From positions 1 to 52,831 of IMG/VR virus record IMGVR_UViG_3300025668_000001: 52,831 nucleotides of DNA. One strand, given 5' to 3'. Under the pieces are notes generated by a model. The model worked only from the letters and a program-made list of their open reading frames with translations, searched no databases and had not been told where the DNA came from. This document shows positions 6,316 through 46,988 of the stretch, piece by piece (the first letter of the stretch is position 1; each line of letters opens with the position of its first letter). Both the position numbers and the translations under genes were made by a program. The DNA comes from a virus. Its lineage: Duplodnaviria > Caudoviricetes.

Positions 6316-6452
6316 CTGGTTTTCCTCAATTCATCACGGACAGCGACGATCAGATCGATCAGTCTTTCGGTTGTTTGTTGGGCTGGCTTGCCTGTCAGCC
6401 TTTGCAGATCCTGTTCGAAGGCCTTCCGGGCCTCATTTACGTCTTTACTCAT
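6312..6452 (-). CDS. Small hypothetical protein (46 aa), not in ORF track
   Basis: MSKDVNEARKAFEQDLQRL...; GGAGG SD; fills the gap with overlapping start and stop codons. Confidence 0.75.
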   Translation of the reverse strand: MSKDVNEARKAFEQDLQRLTGKPAQQTTERLIDLIVAVRDELRKTR

Positions 6453-6754
6453 TAATACCTCCGCTTGCAGTTCGGGCAGCATAGCTCTGTTAAAGCAGTT
6501 ACCTTGCGCTCTGCGTCTTCGATAAACTCAAAAACGCAGACGTAAGAATATCCTTTGACCACATCCGTCTCGAAGTCCCTGTCGTCTGTATCAGTCATGG
6601 GGACGATCTCATTGTGCGGGGTGTACAGCGTACACATAAACTTCTCATCTTCCGTGTTGCAGTGTTTGCGCAGCACATAGACGTAATAGCCGTCTTTTAT
6701 CGGGAAGTTCATTTCTTCTATGAGGCAGTCAGGGAAGTTGTCTTCATCATACAT
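6452..6754 (-). CDS. Hypothetical protein (100 aa)
   Basis: ORF with leader TAGGAAATGACCAATG. Confidence 0.75.
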   Translation of the reverse strand: MYDEDNFPDCLIEEMNFPIKDGYYVYVLRKHCNTEDEKFMCTLYTPHNEIVPMTDTDDRDFETDVVKGYSYVCVFEFIEDAERKVTALTELCCPNCKRRY

Positions 6755-6817
6755 TGGTCATTTCCTATTCAGTTATAAGTAGATGTCTTTGATGACAGGC
6801 GGTGTTAACGTCTGTGT

Positions 6818-7924
6818 TCATCCAAATCTCTTGCTCATGGCGCTTGCGGCCAGTTTCTTGGTGGGGCGAACATATACATTCAATACATTCCGGCTCATGT
6901 GACCCGTGACTGACCGTAGTTCGTCCTCTGTGCATCCGGCTTCCGCCAGTTCTGTTGCGCCCGTGCGCCGGAGATCTCTAAGTTGTAGTTCTTCGGGCAA
7001 ACCGGCGGCTTGGCGGATCTTTGCAGCGTACTTGCTGTACAGACGCATGTCGTAAGGTCTTCCAGTGGTCTCTGATATGATGATAGGCCCGTCTTTGGTC
7101 TGTTTCATGCCTGAGAGGCGCTGTATTAGCTGCGGAGAGGCCTCTAGCTTCACTTCCGCCTTGGTTTTCTCTTGCACGAAGGTAAAGACACCATTTTTAT
7201 ACTGATCCCATGTGATCTGACGCATGTCTCCGGGCCGCTGACACAGGTGATAGCACAACAGAGCCAGTGTACCGACACTAGACAACCCTTGTTTGTCTGA
7301 TTGGGCTATAAACTCATCCACTTGCTCGGGTTCCCACAGTATCACACGAGGTGGTGTCTCACTAAGACCCATCTGGGCGAATGGATTGACTGCATTAGGC
7401 GATAGGAAGCCTCGACGGCCTGTGAACCATATGCGGCGGAGTATCTTACACACACCATTGGCTCTGTGGACACTGAATTGCTCACGAACTGCATCGTATA
7501 CCTTGTCGGCCATAGCTGCGTCCACGCTTCGAGCCAGCACCTGACCGAAAACTGCATTGGCACCACCGATGCGAAGGCTGGCGACAGTCTTGTACAAGAA
7601 CCTGTACGTCCGCTTTGTGTTTGGCGTCTTGTGCTTGAATGCTTTGTGTTGTGTGTAGAAGTGAAAGAGGGCATCTACGGTCTCTCTATCGATCTTAGAT
7701 TGCTTCTCTCGGGTTCTTTCGAACTCTTCGATGGCCCTCATAATCATTTTACAGTGTGTGGCAGCCTCTTCACGGCTTTCAAACTGTTCGTAGGTGGCTC
7801 CTACATGCTCTCGAGCGTAGTCTGAGGGGTTACATACCCACACATAATGGCCCTTACGGCTCCGGCGCTCCAAATATTTGATCTTCTCCATGTTCCGATA
7901 CCTTAAATAGTTATACGCTCTCAT
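6818..7924 (-). CDS. int: Tyrosine recombinase/integrase
   Basis: Catalytic residues CQRPGD, QEKT, LRDLRRTGAT, TGH and VY; an alternative start at 7891 is possible. Confidence 0.92.
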   Translation of the reverse strand: MRAYNYLRYRNMEKIKYLERRSRKGHYVWVCNPSDYAREHVGATYEQFESREEAATHCKMIMRAIEEFERTREKQSKIDRETVDALFHFYTQHKAFKHKTPNTKRTYRFLYKTVASLRIGGANAVFGQVLARSVDAAMADKVYDAVREQFSVHRANGVCKILRRIWFTGRRGFLSPNAVNPFAQMGLSETPPRVILWEPEQVDEFIAQSDKQGLSSVGTLALLCYHLCQRPGDMRQITWDQYKNGVFTFVQEKTKAEVKLEASPQLIQRLSGMKQTKDGPIIISETTGRPYDMRLYSKYAAKIRQAAGLPEELQLRDLRRTGATELAEAGCTEDELRSVTGHMSRNVLNVYVRPTKKLAASAMSKRFG

Positions 7925-8000: not shown

Positions 8001-8082
8001 AGGTGCGAAAGTGTTTTCGCATCCTCCCTGTGAGTATTTATACTCTAACTCTAGCCCCTAGACTTCGGTCTGGGGGTTTTTT
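8001..8082 (+). ncRNA. Candidate sRNA with an anti-SD TCCTCCCT segment
   Basis: Promoter upstream, two hairpins, terminator GCCCCTAGAC-TTCG-GTCTGGGGGT plus T run, no ORF. Confidence 0.5.
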
Positions 8083-8096
8083 AGTGGATGGGCCAT

Positions 8097-8131: not shown

Positions 8132-8424
8132 GACTGGCACGTCAAACATTAACTGCTACTAGTGACTCTAGCTATAGTAGGGAATCCTTCGTCATATCCA
8201 TCATCTACTGCCTTTGTGGTGAATATTGTGTCCGAATCTAATTGCAGGACTACTTGATCTGTTCCTGTTTCGTTTGCTGCCTCTGAAGCACTTATCAGCG
8301 CATTGCCTAACTCTTGCGCCATATTCTTTTGTAGTATCATACTTCATTACCTCTTGCTCTTGGTGACTATCGTATTGATACTTTAATTCTCAAAAGACTG
8401 GCACGTCAAGCATTAACTGCTACT
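8132..8424. repeat. 29-bp direct repeat pair (8132-8160 and 8396-8424)
   Basis: GACTGGCACGTCAA(A/G)CATTAACTGCTACT with one mismatch. Confidence 0.9.
8149..8340 (-). CDS. Hypothetical protein (63 aa) bracketed by the direct repeats
   Basis: ORF with GAGG SD. Confidence 0.7.
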   Translation of the reverse strand: MILQKNMAQELGNALISASEAANETGTDQVVLQLDSDTIFTTKAVDDGYDEGFPTIARVTSSS

Positions 8425-8633
8425 CATAAAATGGCATAGCCAAATTTTGCTCAGTGCATAGTTATCCACATCCTCGGCTCCCGGCCATCCACAATCAGAT
8501 CGACGCCGCACCGCCGCACGAAATCGTTTTATAAGATGACGAACAAATAATTCGACACCCTATCGACACTTTGTTATGTGTCGAGCCGGGGCCGAGTGGC
8601 TCTGCTTAAATCTAACTCATGGAGACTGACCAA

Positions 8634-8948
8634 ATGAACACCGAAAAAATCGACATTGGCGAACTGGCCAACAATCTGAGCAACAACCAAATCTGTGATT
8701 TGCTGGGACGAGTAGGGGATCGCATCAACATTTTTTATGGGCTGCACAATATGTGCTGCCTGTCATCTGATTTTGCTAACGCATCGATGAACGGCCCGGT
8801 CATCCAGATAAATTGCGAGACCGCATATTTGGATGATCTGAGTGAGCATGAGTTTTTCGCTTATGCTGTGGCCAAGGGTGGCGGGAATACAGAAGGCCAG
8901 CACGAAGGCTGCAACCACGAAAACGAGGGGGACGCATCCGATGGCTGA
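8634..8948 (+). CDS. Hypothetical putative early protein (104 aa)
   Basis: ATG follows the shared leader GGAGACTGACCAA. Confidence 0.75.
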   Translation: MNTEKIDIGELANNLSNNQICDLLGRVGDRINIFYGLHNMCCLSSDFANASMNGPVIQINCETAYLDDLSEHEFFAYAVAKGGGNTEGQHEGCNHENEGDASDG

Positions 8949-9228
8949 TAATTCCCTACCTGATGAAATGGCAATTTTGCTCATCCATGCCGCCACCAAA
9001 TCGGACGGCTGCCCGGTTCCCTTCCCTACTATCTCGAGGCCACAGGCCGGGGATCGAAAGCAGCGCACCCCTGCCGAGCTAGACAAGGCCGCCGAGGGGC
9101 TTCTGCGCCGGGGCTATTTATCCCGCCGGGTGACCACTAACCGGCAGAAGGTGTGGCGCACCGTCCGAGGGGTGGGTGATTGCACCCTCGAGATCACCGA
9201 GTTGGGCCGAGCGGCCATCCGCTGGTGA
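8941..9228 (+). CDS. Hypothetical protein, winged-helix-like (resembles the N-terminal region of DUF3489 proteins)
   Basis: GLLRRGYL...WR...LEITELGRAAI pattern; GAGGGGG SD. Confidence 0.55.
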   Translation: MADNSLPDEMAILLIHAATKSDGCPVPFPTISRPQAGDRKQRTPAELDKAAEGLLRRGYLSRRVTTNRQKVWRTVRGVGDCTLEITELGRAAIRW

Positions 9229-9307
9229 TGGGGCCGGTCTACTCCCTTCTTGGGTTTTTCACATTCTGGGGTCTGCTTTTCTATTGGCTGGCCAGTTAAA
9301 AATAAGA

Positions 9308-9330
9308 GCCGCCCTCCGGGGCGGTTTTTT
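9308..9330 (+). terminator. Rho-independent terminator
   Basis: GCCGCCC-TCCG-GGGCGGT followed by a T run. Confidence 0.8.
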
Positions 9331-9625
9331 CTTGACACCCCTCAGAGCCATTTTCCGGCCCTCTGAGTGGGGGGTTATCGGCCCGGGCACTACATATCAA
9401 AAAAACCCGTTCCCTGTATTCAGGGCCAATAATGTCTTTTTAGAGGTGTATTATGGCCCGTTTTGTACTGTATTTTTTCAGCCCTATATATAGTGACCAT
9501 TTAAGTTCCCAAGATGGGGAATTCTTTGTCACCTGATAAAGGGCTTGCAAATCACATTAGTTGAATGCTAAGGGTGGGCATGGCCGGAGGCCTGTCAAAT
9601 TTTTATCTAACTTGGAGACTGACCA

Positions 9626-10612
9626 ATGAACACTTACACAAACCTTTCGCACCTCTCACCTGAAATCATTTCTCTTGCACAGCGTTTGCATGAGCGCCAA
9701 CAGGCCGAGCAGCCCAGCCCAGCAATGAAGCGCCTGTTTCCTGCTCTGGATAAAACCGGGTTCACCGCCGAGGCTGTCGAGCTATTCCATGAAATGAACG
9801 GCACAGAAAACAACTACGGCGAATTCGCCGGGGTTCCTGAGAACGTGGGCCGCCTGATCCGCCGCACCGATACCAACCAGCCTTTGGGTGTGGTGGGTGA
9901 ACGCTACGCAATCGCACAGAATGGTGATCTGGCCGCTAAACTGGCCGAGGGCTGCGAGGCTGCACTTCCTACCCGGGCGCTGCAAAACATCGAACTGCGG
10001 GAAAGCATCAGCCGCAACGGGCGGTTCAGCCGCTTCGAATATTCTTTTCCTGAACTGGGCGCAGACATCCGCCAGCTAACAGGCCGCAGCACTTCCCTCA
10101 AATTCCGGGTTGCGGTGGTCAATGGATTTTCAGGCACGAGTATCCGTGCGACGGCAGGCGCAATCGATTGGTATTGCGACAATGGCATGACGTTTGGAGA
10201 GTTCGAAACCTCTGTTTTCCGCCATACGTCCGGCTTTAACCCAAACAAGGTAAAGCAGTTTGTGACGCTCGAGGCCGAGCGGTTCAAAGAGCGTGTGAGC
10301 ATCTGGCAGCGTTGGGCCTTGAATGAGATCAACCCATCCGAGGCCGAGCTTTGCTTAGAGGAAGCCGGGATGGCTGGCCGCACAATCAAGCGTGTAATGG
10401 AGCAGCTAGACCTCGAGGCGCAAGAACGTGGAATGACAACGTGGGCCGTATATTCAGCGTTGACCTACCGCTCGAGCCACAACAGCGAACGGTTTGGCGT
10501 CCGCAATTCCAACAATATAGACAATGTGGCCGAGGTGTTGGATCGCCGTGAGCGTGAGGTGGGCCAGATCATAAGTCATCCGGCAATGGCACGGATCGGC
10601 ATGGCCGCCTAA
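9626..10612 (+). CDS. DUF932-family protein
   Basis: R-TDTNQPLGVVGERY..QN, VNGFSG and CDNGM...RHT pattern typical of DUF932. Confidence 0.75.
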   Translation: MNTYTNLSHLSPEIISLAQRLHERQQAEQPSPAMKRLFPALDKTGFTAEAVELFHEMNGTENNYGEFAGVPENVGRLIRRTDTNQPLGVVGERYAIAQNGDLAAKLAEGCEAALPTRALQNIELRESISRNGRFSRFEYSFPELGADIRQLTGRSTSLKFRVAVVNGFSGTSIRATAGAIDWYCDNGMTFGEFETSVFRHTSGFNPNKVKQFVTLEAERFKERVSIWQRWALNEINPSEAELCLEEAGMAGRTIKRVMEQLDLEAQERGMTTWAVYSALTYRSSHNSERFGVRNSNNIDNVAEVLDRREREVGQIISHPAMARIGMAA

Positions 10613-10613
10613 A

Positions 10614-10691
10614 GTCGAAACGCCCGGTTCATCGCCGGGCGTCTGCCGGGAAGGCTCCACACAATGTGGCCCGGTACTGATGAGACAAGCC
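10614..10691 (+). ncRNA. Hammerhead ribozyme, type II (copy 1), predicted cleavage after C10643
   Basis: GTC-GAAA-[CGCCCGG/CCGGGCG]-TC-[TGCCGGG/CCCGGTA]-CTGATGA-GAC; complete catalytic core; tail AGCC can pair with bulge GGCT. Confidence 0.92.
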
Positions 10692-10713
10692 CCCTAACTT
10701 GGAGACTGACCAA

Positions 10714-11259
10714 ATGAACACTCAAACCAAAATCACCCTGACAGGTTCAACACCCGCCGAGACTGTTTCCGGCCCTAAGTGGGTTGCCACTAAGACCCGC
10801 ACCGCTTGGGCGCATGGTGCTGTGATCGCAGAGAGCCGCCGACAGGGCCGCACCTTGCAGACGCTGGCTGAGGAGTATGGTGTGAGCATTGGCACAATTG
10901 ATCGGATCGCCGAGGCGCAGCCGCAGCCGCTGGCCCATGATCGGAGGGCATTGTTGAACGCCAAGACATTGCTGGACGCTGTACAGGCTGCCCGTGATGC
11001 CCGGAATGATATGGCCGCCCAGTTGCTCGAGGCGCAGCACGATTTGGCCAATGCGAAGCTGGGCGAGGCGTCCGCCATTGCACGGCTCAACGATCCGAGC
11101 GTGGCTAACAAGTGGAAGGCCGAGGCGCACCAAGAATATTTGCGCCGGGATGAGGCCGAGCGTGACCGGGCGGCAGCGGAGGCACAGATCGAAATGATGG
11201 CCGAGCGGCTGGCAGAATGTCGGGGCCGGGGTTTCTGGGCACGGGTATTCAATCGCTAA
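10714..11259 (+). CDS. HTH + coiled-coil protein (181 aa)
   Basis: TLQTLAEEYGVSIGTIDRI HTH, Ala-rich coil, C-terminal GFWARVF. Confidence 0.7.
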   Translation: MNTQTKITLTGSTPAETVSGPKWVATKTRTAWAHGAVIAESRRQGRTLQTLAEEYGVSIGTIDRIAEAQPQPLAHDRRALLNAKTLLDAVQAARDARNDMAAQLLEAQHDLANAKLGEASAIARLNDPSVANKWKAEAHQEYLRRDEAERDRAAAEAQIEMMAERLAECRGRGFWARVFNR

Positions 11260-11333
11260 GTCGAAACCGGGGCGCTGCCCCGGTCTGCGGGATAGGCTGC
11301 ACACAACGTGCTCCCGTACTGATGAGACAAGCC
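11260..11333 (+). ncRNA. Hammerhead ribozyme, type II (copy 2), predicted cleavage after C11285
   Basis: GTC-GAAA-[CCGGGGC/GCCCCGG]-TC-[TGCGGGA/TCCCGTA]-CTGATGA-GAC-AAGCC; stems covary with copy 1. Confidence 0.92.
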
Positions 11334-11355
11334 GCTAACTTGGAGACTGACCACA

Positions 11356-11691
11356 ATGAAACTTTTGACCAAAGCAAACCGCACGAAGCTCGAGGCAAAC
11401 GCCCGGAAGACTGAGATCGAAGGCGAAGACGATCACCGCCCGGTGGTTAAACTGTTTGACCCCTGCGGCGCTGCCACTTGGCTGTTGACCGAGATTGAGG
11501 GCGACATTGCCTTTGGCCTCTGTGATCTGGGCATGGGTTCGCCGGAGCTTGGCAGCGTATCGATCACCGAGCTTGAGGCCATCAAGGGGCCGCTGGGGAT
11601 CGGTATTGAGCGGGACCAATACTTTGAGGCTGAGATGACGATCTCAGAATATGCCGAGGCCGCCCGTGCCTCTGGCTCGATTGCAGCGTAA
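11356..11691 (+). CDS. DUF2958-family protein
   Basis: PVVKLFDPCGAATWLLTE, AFGLCDLGMGSPELGSV and IERD motifs. Confidence 0.85.
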   Translation: MKLLTKANRTKLEANARKTEIEGEDDHRPVVKLFDPCGAATWLLTEIEGDIAFGLCDLGMGSPELGSVSITELEAIKGPLGIGIERDQYFEAEMTISEYAEAARASGSIAA

Positions 11692-11704
11692 GGGGGGCGA
11701 GATC

Positions 11705-12199
11705 ATGGGATTGGATATGTACCTATCAGGCGATAAATACTTCGTGCCAGATCATAAAACCCTACAGGCTGAGTATGAGGCCGGGAAAGAACGCCCCGGC
11801 CCTTCAGAGGCCCGGACACTGGGCAAGCCTGTCGATGCGGATGGTGAGCACATCAGTAGCAGCCAGCACGATCTGGGGTATTGGCGCAAGTTCGCACCGC
11901 TGCACAATTACATCGTCCAGAACTTCGCCAATGGTGTGGATGAATGCCAGCAGATCGAACTAACAGAGGACGATTTGGAAAAGATCGCTGTGGCCCTGAC
12001 AGATGGTGCCCTGCCATCTAATGACGACTGCGGCGGGTTCTTTTTTGGCTCGAGTGATGTGTGGGATGAATACCGGGCCGAGGCTGCACAGCATGCCGCA
12101 AAGATCCGGGCAGCCGCCCAGTGGATCAACAGCTCCCCACTTCACCCCAGCGGATCTTGTGCACAGTGGCGCAGCGTCCACTATCAGGCGAGTTGGTGA
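11705..12199 (+). CDS. Conserved phage hypothetical protein
   Basis: MGLDMYL...GYWRK..LHNY...GFFFG...YQASW family pattern. Confidence 0.8.
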   Translation: MGLDMYLSGDKYFVPDHKTLQAEYEAGKERPGPSEARTLGKPVDADGEHISSSQHDLGYWRKFAPLHNYIVQNFANGVDECQQIELTEDDLEKIAVALTDGALPSNDDCGGFFFGSSDVWDEYRAEAAQHAAKIRAAAQWINSSPLHPSGSCAQWRSVHYQASW

Positions 12200-12200
12200 G

Positions 12201-12431
12201 ATGACCTACCAGCAACTGAGCCAATACGTTTGCAGCAAGTGCGGGTCTGATCACCTTGGCTGGGATGCTTGGGCTGATGAAAACGGCCAAGTGATCGGCG
12301 TAATGGATTTCAACCAGTGTCTAGATGCAGAGTGCGGTGCGGAAAGTACAGCCGTCTTGCGCATCGATCTGGAGACACAGGGCACCGCCGAGGCCTTGGA
12401 GCGAGTGAACGAGCAGGAGGGCGCAGCATGA
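12201..12431 (+). CDS. Small putative zinc-ribbon protein (76 aa)
   Basis: CSKC...CLDAEC. Confidence 0.65.
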   Translation: MTYQQLSQYVCSKCGSDHLGWDAWADENGQVIGVMDFNQCLDAECGAESTAVLRIDLETQGTAEALERVNEQEGAA

Positions 12432-12622
12432 GCGAGGTTCCCCTAACAGAGGCGCAGCGCCTATCGATTAAACAGGTTCACGCCCGGTTCGAAATCCTGC
12501 AACCGCTCGATCAGTTCACCGCATCCGCAAAGCCTCAACTGGGCTGGGATGATGGCTCGATCCTGATCAACGCCAAAGGGATGTGGATTGGCATTGAGGC
12601 GGACGGCAGCCGCCACAGCTAA
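12428..12622 (+). CDS. Hypothetical protein (64 aa)
   Basis: AGGAGG SD, ATGA overlap, ends WIGIEADGSRHS. Confidence 0.75.
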   Translation: MSEVPLTEAQRLSIKQVHARFEILQPLDQFTASAKPQLGWDDGSILINAKGMWIGIEADGSRHS

Positions 12623-12648
12623 CAGCCACCACCACAGAACAACATCAG

Positions 12649-12677
12649 AGGCCCGGTTAACCCCCGGGCCTTTTCTT
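12649..12677 (+). terminator. Terminator closing the early operon
   Basis: AGGCCCGG/CCGGGCCT stem followed by TTTCTT. Confidence 0.8.
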
Positions 12678-12849
12678 ATGCCTGAGAGCCACACAGAGCC
12701 ACGCACAGGGCCGTTAACAGTTACGGCATGAGGTGACACCTACCAGAGGGGCGACAAGGGCACTCAGACGGGCGCACAGAGGCTCTCAGAGATGGGCCGC
12801 CTGAGATGGCTGCACCGGGCGCAGGATCGGGACGCTGGCCGGGATCGAT

Positions 12850-12946
12850 CACCCGGGCGATGTCGTGACGGGATGCAGCAAGGCGGACACCCGGGCGATG
12901 TCGTGACGGGATGCAGCAAGGCGGACACCCGGGCGGACACCCGGGC
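12850..12946. repeat. Tandem repeat: two 38-bp units plus two short CACCCGGGC copies
   Basis: CACCCGGGCGATGTCGTGACGGGATGCAGCAAGGCGGA at 12850 and 12888; CACCCGGGC again at 12926 and 12938. Confidence 0.9.
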
Positions 12947-13462
12947 CAGAGGTGACGGGATATCGTACACCCGGCGGCCCCTCCCGCTTTCGCCTGTGAT
13001 ACGGCAACGGCTAGAGATCGGAGGCTATTTCCCCAGCCCACGAACAAACCACGGCAATCCGCCCGGGCTATATGGGGTAGGGGTCTCGCAATCCCGGGGC
13101 CGATACCTAAGAGGTAACAGGCCGAGGCCTCGAAACACTGGCCCGAGCCTCAAAGCCCAATGAAATAAGGGGCTTCCGGCCACGATCAAGCCGCTCAGAC
13201 CCCTGCCGCACCCCCCATGCGAGTGCCACCGGGGGGGTACCCGGTAGCGTATACCACTCTGACCAAATCTGGGGATTTTAGCACCGTAAATGACCCGGGT
13301 GCGGACCCGAGGAATTGGTTATGTCAAAGCACAAAGCGGTATTTCGGGGAAGATATCCGGTAAAGTGTCAATAACTCGGTTCTCTAAACGCTACTAGTAT
13401 GGGGAAATAGGGTAGGCTGACCGTCTGAGCCTTAGTTAGGGGTCAATATATGCACCTAACTG

Positions 13463-13491
13463 TTGACCTACACCCTAGACTTAGTTATTGT
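13463..13491 (+). promoter_or_regulatory. Sigma70-like promoter
   Basis: TTGACC-17bp-TATTGT. Confidence 0.65.
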
Positions 13492-13542
13492 ACCTCTATC
13501 TGGGGTAATATCCCGGGTATGCGCCAGCTAAGAGGATCTGAT

Positions 13543-13878
13543 ATGTCGGATTATGGCGTCAGCTTAGACTTAGAGGTGCCAGTTTACCTCGAACATGACC
13601 TTGAGGTGGACGATGATGGGACGCTGTACCTTAATTCGTTCCTCTACATCGGAGATAACGACGACTCGACGGAGGTTCGGATAGAATTCCAGCCTTTGGT
13701 GGAGTCGGTGGTCGATGTAGCCCGGGATTTCAACGACGGCTATAAGCAGTTGTACGGTATTGCCCATGAATTTGATCGCCACGCCGCTCGTATGCGTGAG
13801 TTAGCCGAGAAGATGGAGGATTCGGTAGTTAATATCGGAGATCTATTCGAAGTCGGAGATCTCGACGATGTGGAGTGA
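13543..13878 (+). CDS. Acidic hypothetical protein (111 aa)
   Basis: GAGGA SD before ATG 13543. Confidence 0.75.
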   Translation: MSDYGVSLDLEVPVYLEHDLEVDDDGTLYLNSFLYIGDNDDSTEVRIEFQPLVESVVDVARDFNDGYKQLYGIAHEFDRHAARMRELAEKMEDSVVNIGDLFEVGDLDDVE

Positions 13879-14257
13879 CTCAGAGCTAGTAGATTTCTCC
13901 AAAGCAGAGATGCTTGAGGCTCATGTACGCAAGAAGCTGGCTAATAACCTAGCGGTGGCCGCTAACAAGTGCAGAGAACAAGGCCTACCGTTTAATATTA
14001 CGGCGGATGACCTCATGCCAGCGCCTCTGAAGTGTCCTGTCTTCGGATTTAAGCTCGACTGGTACAAGGATGGACGAGGCGGGGCCGACGATAGCCCTAG
14101 TATAGACCGTCTCATCCCTGAAGAGGGATATGTGCCCGGTAATGTCACGCTAATATCTCTCAAGGCCAACCGTATTAAGAACGACAGTGATCTGTCAGAG
14201 CTTCGTATGGTAGCAGACTGGGTAGAGGCCCAGATAACGGAAAAGGCCCGAGCATAA
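13868..14257 (+). CDS. HNH-like endonuclease
   Basis: CPVFG...SPSIDRLIP..GYVPGNV..IS..AN..KND. Confidence 0.75.
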   Translation: MWSDSELVDFSKAEMLEAHVRKKLANNLAVAANKCREQGLPFNITADDLMPAPLKCPVFGFKLDWYKDGRGGADDSPSIDRLIPEEGYVPGNVTLISLKANRIKNDSDLSELRMVADWVEAQITEKARA

Positions 14258-46953: not shown

Positions 46954-46988
46954 CTATCTAACTTGAAAAGTGACCAAACCTTTCAAGT
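46916..46988 (-). ncRNA. Candidate trans-acting antisense sRNA against the early-gene leaders
   Basis: Promoter TTGACC-17-TATAAC (47020-46992); 5' hairpin containing UUUGGUCACUUUUCAAGUUAGAU; GAAA-loop terminator. Confidence 0.65.

Follow-up and report, generated by a model that had tools for sequence, protein, structure and literature searches.

Here, we show that four mutually unrelated genes in the genome of a roseophage each begin directly behind nearly the same short leader, and that in related phages this leader stands at the borders of swapped gene cassettes. The genome is IMG/VR record IMGVR_UViG_3300025668_000001, a complete virus record of 52,831 bp flanked by direct terminal repeats, which was analysed over its whole length (the window). 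The reading that we favour, and consider rather probable given the comparison with relatives, is that the leader serves to load ribosomes within a standardised 5′ untranslated region (UTR) of this phage lineage and is at the same time a recombination joint, akin to a natural version of the synthetic ribozyme insulator RiboJ.

The core of the leader, GGAGACTGACCA, occurs exactly four times in the window, always on the plus strand (at 8621, 9614, 10701 and 11342), and each occurrence ends 0–3 nucleotides (nt) 5′ of an ATG. The full copies, all on the plus strand, are copy 1 (CTAACTCATGGAGACTGACCAAATG; 8612..8636), before gene E with its ATG at 8634; copy 2 (CTAACTTGGAGACTGACCAATG; 9607..9628), before gene A, which encodes a DUF932 protein and starts at 9626; copy 3 (10694..10716), before gene B with its ATG at 10714; and copy 4 (11335..11358), before gene D, which encodes a DUF2958 protein and starts at 11356. 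Identity continues into the coding sequence, with ATGAACAC in three of the four copies. A first-pass annotation, made from the letters alone, had placed leaders before these same ATGs, as the exact count and the chance controls bear out; its formula for the motif holds overall, except that copy 4 reads GACCA-CA-ATG, so that the ending given as (CA)TG is one A short. A scan of the window with the 19-mer CTAACTNGGAGACTGACCA, allowing up to three mismatches, returned four matches, three of them exact and one, at 46958, with three mismatches; 0.02 were expected, and none of 100 shuffles reached four. Copy 1 is absent from this set only through CAT in place of T. The gapped pattern TAACT-N0-4-GGAG-N1-6-GACC gave four forward and no reverse matches and its reversed control none, and a looser regular expression matched five times, where 100 Markov-1 simulations averaged 0.86 matches and never exceeded 3. 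It is the exact copies that carry weight: with two mismatches allowed in GGAGACTGACCA, five sites were found where 4.72 are expected, which is uninformative. A fifth, looser leader-like site (TAACTGAATAGGAAATGACCAATG; 6752..6775, minus strand) precedes the open reading frame (ORF) 6754..6452.

In every copy, GGAG lies 8–10 nt 5′ of the ATG and is complementary to CCUCC at the 3′ end of a roseobacter 16S rRNA. Together with the conserved ORFs that follow (DUF932, DUF2958 and two proteins conserved in relatives), this spacing is that of a Shine-Dalgarno (SD) initiation region. Inspection of about 44 further gene starts of the window revealed none with the motif, and the translationally coupled genes that overlap the preceding stop codon (C at 8941 and G at 11651) lack a leader.

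All four copies are predicted to stand behind a stable hairpin near an mRNA 5′ end, since copies 3 and 4 follow hammerhead ribozymes and copies 1 and 2 follow a promoter-like site and a hairpin; centroid folds leave the leader unpaired behind this hairpin in all four contexts. The promoter-like site before copy 1 was recognised by eye at about 8551-8579 (plus strand), and folding places a GC hairpin just 3′ of it (8587..8604, plus). Before copy 2, a promoter-like TTGCAA-N16-GCTAAG is followed by a GC hairpin (9545..9596, plus), and these blocks are conserved in eight of eight relatives. Between gene C and this second promoter, the sequence holds a terminator-like GC hairpin with a T-run (9305..9335, plus), also conserved in relatives; a scan called this hairpin on the minus strand. 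From their position and these sigma-70-like promoters, the genes would be early ones.

The two ribozymes are type II hammerheads. Hammerhead 1 (10613-10695, plus) begins directly after the stop codon of A, and hammerhead 2 (11259-11337, plus) directly after that of B. The earlier claim that two copies of the leader are joined to hammerheads is thus upheld: both match the Rfam family Hammerhead_II, the first with 38.8 bits (gathering score 37) and the other slightly below that score. Both contain CUGAUGAG, CGAAAC and GUC, that is, the catalytic core and the NUH cleavage triplet. The predicted cuts, after C10643 (GUC^U) in hammerhead 1 and after C11285 in hammerhead 2, would each leave a 70-nt 5′ UTR that opens with the stem I hairpin and a pseudoknot tail. 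Hammerhead 1 folds into two hairpins with an AGCC/GGCU tail-to-loop complement. Among 18 hammerhead candidates found by motif in nine related loci, 14 score E ≤ 0.1 and six reach the gathering score; one relative has the core CUGACGAG, which differs at a variable core position. A two-hairpin fold with at least 4 bp in each hairpin was obtained for 56 of 64 candidate stretches, 5 of the 64 being spurious anchors, and in 54 the tail and loop are complementary over 4 nt or more. A 4-nt complement is common by chance, and the argument for a pseudoknot is its fixed position and the co-varying pairs (AGCC/GGCU, GCCC/GGGC, GGCC/GGCC and GUCA/UGAC). The 3′ halves of the two hammerheads are 84% identical over 51 nt. 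Hammerhead 1 is chimeric: its stem III matches that of the A-linked ribozyme of CRP-3, and over stem I, core and tail it shares 84% identity with hammerhead 2. Cut at both ends, the B message (10644-11285) would retain the 3′ half of hammerhead 1 together with the 5′ half of hammerhead 2. Because the stem II strands of these halves match (GUC/GAC), self-ligation into a circular mRNA is conceivable; Perreault 2011 (PMC3088659) reports having sought circular products in other systems and having seen none.

The window phage is an HMO-2011-type roseophage near CRP-3. It encodes a family A DNA polymerase, a DnaB-like helicase, ThyX, a tyrosine integrase, a ribonucleotide reductase, MazG, a large terminase, and an SU10-type portal and adaptor. 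The large terminase is 99.8% identical to its counterpart in Roseobacter phage CRP-3, and DNA identity over the leader region is 87% to CRP-3 and about 68% to CRP-212. CRP-3 and CRP-212 are likewise HMO-2011-type phages of RCA roseobacters, and phages of this type are reported to rank with the most abundant viral groups of the sea (PMC6918029, PMC9038755). An exact scan of IMG/VR with the 19-mer returned no matches, and relatives were then gathered by protein-guided searches as IMG/VR loci, 31 metagenome loci (from a protein B alignment) and GenBank phages. Counts below refer to 83 distinct leader contexts in the window and 38 related loci, of which three or four rows are false positives.

Members of the leader family occur in CRP-3, CRP-212 and CRP-235 as well as in dozens of marine contigs. 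They share the form of an A/T-rich linker, (C/T)TAACT, 0–6 nt, GGAG or AAGG, an A-rich spacer that includes GACC, 0–4 nt, and ATG, usually with AA next. TAACT is present in 66 of the 83 contexts and GACC in 71; the SD as called is GGAG in 49 and AGGA, extending to AGGAG, in 18; and in 42 a hammerhead core is found no more than 75 nt upstream. In 75 contexts the second codon begins with A, and in 65 with AA. The spacing of the blocks varies among contexts (0–6 nt and 1–5 nt), and in one clade ACAAATT replaces TAACT while GACC is kept. That the spacer between SD and ATG is itself conserved, as the first-pass annotation had supposed, is true of GACC; the rest of the spacer varies in both length and sequence.

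Among close relatives the leader is the best preserved part of its surroundings. Compared with CRP-3 and the related locus L082, leaders are 91–100% identical, flanking genes 81–93%, and the replaced stem I of the hammerhead 30–42%. Copy 1 matches CRP-3 at 24 of 25 alignment positions and L082 at 23 of 25, and copy 2 matches both at 22 of 22. In the orthologous promoter-proximal slot (that of copy 2), TAACT, GACC and ATGA are invariant in eight of eight sequences and the linkers differ. These linkers are clade-specific and common to all leaders of one genome: TAACT-T-GGAG in the window clade, TAACT-A-GGAG in the clade of L006, and no linker base in the clades of CRP-212 and L015. Over the last 24 nt 5′ of the ATG, the mean edit distance is 8.0 between different genes of the same genome, 8.42 between copies before the same gene in different genomes, and 9.07 when both differ; a within-genome mean as low as 8.0 was reached in none of 2000 permutations. 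In L006 and L007, the leader variants at genes E and A are swapped. As we read these alignments, the leaders are undergoing concerted evolution atop purifying selection on two blocks, TAACT and GACC.

The leader also occurs apart from ribozymes. Loci L003 (4988-5039) and L099 (1000-1047) have a plain GC hairpin followed by the leader where others carry the A-B hammerhead, and CRP-235, with three leaders, gave no Hammerhead_II match. The Hammerhead_II search was likewise negative in CRP-738, CRP-1 and HMO-2011 (0 of 4 genomes, counting CRP-235), with two matches in each of the positive controls CRP-3, CRP-212 and G003. The multi-copy leader pattern was not found in CRP-738, CRP-1 or HMO-2011, where counts were at control level. 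We considered whether the leader is part of the hammerhead, which is rejected by its occurrence without ribozymes, or a property of DUF2958 or DUF932 genes, which is rejected by leaderless DUF2958 loci elsewhere. Since the leader was not found at any of 25 other viral and 37 bacterial DUF2958 loci, we conclude from these comparisons that it is a property of the phage lineage, neither of the genes nor of the ribozyme. In CRP-235 (L115), gp57 is annotated as starting ahead of a leader copy, so that the record translates the leader as KLRKGNDQ; the true start is probably the ATG directly after the leader.

Which gene follows a given leader changes from phage to phage. Downstream of C, the gene behind the promoter-hairpin-leader slot is A in the window, in CRP-3 and in CRP-212, B in L006 and L007, a gene y in L004, and a gene z in L015 and L019. 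The first slot of the array holds E, or J and K, or another gene, or none. The module itself comes in two orders, DUF932-B-DUF2958 and B-DUF932-DUF2958, with B as the next gene after A in 16 loci and A as the next gene after B in 17, several of which are near-duplicates and not all independent. On a tree of A proteins (23 rows), the order label needs three changes, at least two of them forced by well-supported branches; since A is itself a mobile cassette, these changes could be rearrangements or cassette imports. The junctions are precise. Aligned with one another, A-hammerhead-B and A-hammerhead-D sequences are homologous through the end of the upstream gene, the ribozyme and the leader, and diverge after ATGAA; B-hammerhead-D and B-hammerhead-A sequences do the same. 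The ribozyme therefore moves with the upstream gene, and the leader is the joint. The B-hammerhead-leader-A joint and the alternative versions of stem I are found in contigs of the marine metagenome runs X2 and X4, which come from different studies. The suggestion in the first-pass annotation that leaders serve as joints for shuffling genes is supported by the varied genes in the slots, the two orders and the breaks at ATGAA; these display the outcome of recombination at the leader rather than causation by it.

We propose that every gene that starts a message uses one standard 5′ UTR. From the mRNA 5′ end onward, it would consist of a stable GC hairpin, a short linker rich in A and T, (C/U)UAACU, GGAG, an A-rich GACC spacer, and AUG, usually followed by AA. 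The 5′ end would arise either from transcription start or from self-cleavage of a type II hammerhead directly after the preceding stop codon. Cleavage in the cell would free each cistron from upstream RNA and leave a hairpin-capped 5′-OH end, and the unstructured leader would hand unrelated genes an identical initiation signal, which may equalise their translation according to the logic of RiboJ. Because the same 20–30 nt precede every cassette, homologous recombination, both within the genome and between co-infecting relatives, could swap ORF-plus-ribozyme cassettes at the start codon, and would also homogenise the leaders.

Several observations weigh against this proposal. Hammerhead 2 scores 35.1 bits (E 1.9e-4), slightly below the Rfam gathering score of 37. 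Both promoters were recognised by eye and by conservation, and a consensus scan called neither. The listed sequencing runs that contain this stretch include no RNA, and in the one RNA run from the same study the sampled words are almost entirely missing. The excess similarity of leaders within a genome is small (8.0 versus 8.42), and kinship of the loci inflates the permutation test. Breakpoints at the leader mark where homology ends, not that recombination began there. Finally, a plain ribosome-binding site (RBS) needs neither TAACT nor GACC, so that part of the conservation is left unexplained. The conserved blocks flanking the SD point to a further determinant of translation initiation, and would seem to call for some sequence-specific reader.

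One such reader would be a trans-acting factor, either an RNA-binding protein of phage or host or a small RNA of the host, for which TAACT and GACC would form a translational operator that switches all leader-bearing messages jointly. We judge this unlikely, if the strongest of the alternatives, and it is compatible with the standardised UTR. It would account for the retention of TAACT (66/83) and GACC (71/83) amid varying linkers and for their invariance in the eight orthologous slots; the clade-specific variants common to all leaders of a genome are what co-evolution with a single reader predicts; and the fifth copy, on the opposite strand, lies at an integrase-adjacent gene. Against it, the phage genome contains no antisense match to the leader, the variable spacing of the three blocks (0–6 and 1–5 nt) is awkward for a single rigid binding site, and family, PHROGs/Pfam and PDB searches found no RNA-binding family among the module proteins. 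PHROGs and Pfam returned only function-unknown outcomes for these, and PDB sequence searches with proteins C, D and B gave nothing useful. Protein C (95 amino acids, 8941-9228), present in every leader-bearing locus that reaches that point, shows only a weak likeness to MarR/PadR winged-helix proteins in its structural model (pLDDT 68; Foldseek E 0.011, TM 0.58). DNA binding by such a regulator is more likely than binding to the leader, and the protein may regulate the conserved promoter directly downstream.

A second candidate reader is the ribosome itself. In a bipartite, extended SD, (U)GACC(A) would pair with ...UGGAUCA 5′ of the anti-SD, with a bulged A and a small internal loop. We think this less probable again than an operator. 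The pairing was modelled with the 16S rRNA of Yoonia, a roseobacter that is not the host of the phage, which ends in ...GGAUCACCUCCUUU. RNAduplex against its last 20 nt gives GGAG:CUCC plus (U)GACCA:UGG-UCA with the bulged A for seven of eight alleles; energies are −8.2 to −13.4 kcal/mol, weakening to about −6 to −7 when runs of A or U replace the block. In the eighth allele, L015A, which lacks GACC, only CCA pairs besides the SD (−7.8). How well GACC ranks depends on the length of the tail. With 15 nt, only 2–25 of the 256 possible 4-mers score above it, and with a free 13-nt tail 10–80 do; the exact complement of the tail outscores GACC in seven of seven alleles (13 nt) or six of seven (15 nt), yet it is never used. 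Part of the pairing, and with it the high rank of GACC, also requires opening the end of helix 45, and the size of the loop differs between clades. There is no exact complement of CTAACT, TGACCA or GACCA anywhere in the Yoonia 16S, and the duplex of the whole leader with this 16S is no better than shuffles (fraction 0.39).

Three further readings were rejected. An upstream mini-ORF (ATG ACC AAA TGA overlapping the start) fails since the two bases before GACC vary (AT, CT, AC, TA, AA or CA) and its ATG would lie only 1–4 nt from the SD. An SD-sequestering mini-hairpin (UUGG/CCAA) forms a 4-bp stem at copy 2 only, shows no covariation, and is uncompensated in variants without CC. A promoter reading of the leader fails as well, as there is no consistent −10 element and the motif always lies at SD distance from an ATG.

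That the leader has no function beyond the SD, its identity being a by-product of recent duplication and gene conversion in which TAACT and GACC hitch-hike, is in our view very improbable. Conversion does occur, as the 84% identity of the hammerhead 3′ halves and the swapped variants of L006 and L007 indicate. Hitch-hiking would, however, have homogenised the linkers too, whereas it is the linkers that vary from clade to clade and TAACT and GACC that are retained, as far out as about 47% identity in protein B, and GACC is kept even in the ribozyme-less CRP-235. Hardly credible at all is a DNA-level element, such as a promoter or the site of a site-specific recombinase in an integron-like array: a tyrosine integrase gene (6818-7924, minus) does adjoin the array, and CTAACT lies directly 5′ of a TTGACC −35 box at 13456 and also in the leader-like site at 46958, but copies 3 and 4 lie within an operon behind ribozymes that need transcription from upstream, the motif is always at SD distance from an ATG on the coding strand (four forward, none reverse, with the same bias in relatives and none in controls), the structured parts are hammerheads with intact catalytic cores rather than attC-like palindromes, and the CRP-3 integrase is reported to use tRNA-Met as integration site (PMC6918029).

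Returning to the standardised UTR, two of these ideas could act together. Recombinase-free exchange of leader-bounded ORF-plus-ribozyme units, which would be a functional parallel to integrons and PeSLs, might be coupled to a factor, or a second 16S contact, that reads TAACT and GACC to co-set translation; we regard this combination as a tentative idea that is more apt to fail than to hold.

The genes behind the leaders, all on the plus strand, are E (8634-8948; 104 amino acids, no family), A (9626-10612; DUF932), B (10714-11259; 181 amino acids, with a weak helix-turn-helix followed by a coiled coil) and D (11356-11691; DUF2958). The G+C content is 57–58% at 10001-14000 and 47–51% in the remaining genome; this rise suggests that the DUF932/B/DUF2958 module was acquired from elsewhere. 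Within the same G+C-rich stretch, 12850-12946 contains a perfect 38-nt tandem duplication (12850-12887 and 12888-12925) with a third, partial junction copy; the unit is not a multiple of 3, and the matching stretch of CRP-3 has no annotated gene. On the other side of the array, the gene at 6452-6754 (minus), which follows the integrase gene and has the leader-like RBS, is specific to the window genome. Loci L080 and L082, whose integrase is 99% identical, have a different, translationally coupled gene there, overlapping the integrase stop codon (ATGA). The intergenic region between integrase and E contains two 29-nt direct repeats (8132-8160 and 8396-8424; 97% identical, 264 nt apart), which flank a minus-strand ORF of 63 amino acids and may be operator or arm-type sites.

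The upstream block of the leader also turns up at promoter-like sites. At 8016-8085 (plus), TTCGCA-17-TATACT is directly followed by CTAACTC, behind which a hairpin with a T-run resembles a terminator; this arrangement is a candidate for a small RNA, about 35 nt long, with the block at its start. CTAACT lies directly 5′ of a −35-like box at 13456-13491 (CTAACTGTTGACC..TATTGT), and at 46958-46976 a leader look-alike without SD (CTAACTTGAAAAGTGACCA) places it next to another. Relatives carry a CTAACTGTTGAC motif at promoters too.

This locus offers a concrete design for the role of hammerheads in phages: a ribozyme or a promoter, a hairpin, and one fixed RBS leader. Cultured phage-host pairs are available (CRP-3, CRP-212 and CRP-235 on strain FZCC0040). 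The natural variants show gene exchange exactly at the leader, which ties RNA processing signals to the modular evolution of HMO-2011-type genomes. For synthetic biology, the unit would be a natural counterpart of ribozyme insulators and a portable alphaproteobacterial leader.

In T4, RegA controls early mRNAs through translational operators that overlap ribosome-binding sites. The present leader is similar in that one short sequence overlaps the RBS of several early messages; it differs in that its sequence is unrelated and that no RNA-binding family was found among the module proteins. The epsilon enhancer of T7 gene 10 was originally proposed to pair its upstream box with 16S rRNA. Here too, (C/U)UAACU(U) stands directly 5′ of a GGAGA SD in a phage leader, and the epsilon motif is printed as UUAACUUUAA in PMC9590205. 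The overlap of the leader with this motif is only 6–7 nt, no exact complement of CTAACT or ATCTAACTT is present in the non-host roseobacter 16S, and one clade has ACAAATT instead.

The roles of genomic hammerheads in bacteria and phages are largely open according to a 2019 review (PMC6765202). In prophages, hammerheads flank single, non-constant genes, and processing to single-gene mRNAs has been proposed (Perreault 2011, PMC3088659). The passages of that paper describe, as we do, type II hammerheads that lie between the genes of one operon and in which loop I forms a pseudoknot with the 3′ tail; in one instance they flank the anti-restriction gene ardA. Unlike the cases in those passages, each ribozyme here precedes a conserved ribosome-binding leader that is also used without ribozymes, and its cleavage is a prediction. 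The words "ribozyme" and "hammerhead" do not occur in the main texts of PMC6918029 and PMC9038755, and a literature search to which supplements and subscription journals were external found no paper on a shared leader after natural phage hammerheads. The fixed RBS leader as a unit of expression and exchange, with or without ribozyme, thus seems to be new, in that it was not found in print; alignments in supplements may show it.

Gene shuffling at short repeats has a precedent in the PeSLs of T4-type phages (Arbiol et al. 2010, PMC2839356). These are likewise short conserved cassettes between small non-essential genes, where recombination between copies shuffles, deletes and replaces genes, and the gain, loss and replacement of genes up to the cassette boundaries is what we observe at the leader. 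A PeSL is described as a promoter and a terminator stem-loop, whereas the present unit is an RBS leader with a ribozyme or plain hairpin upstream; promoter-like sites are found at copies 1 and 2 only, and copies 3 and 4 are promoterless within the operon. Another likeness is to RiboJ (PMC6206723), in which a hammerhead removes upstream RNA and leaves a 5′ hairpin before the RBS, giving every gene a common 5′ end. The phage unit differs from that synthetic part in being natural, of type II, placed between cistrons rather than after a promoter, and inclusive of the RBS. In its sequence it combines the hairpin expected after cleavage with an identical ribosome-binding region, the two features by which it would insulate each gene from the RNA upstream.

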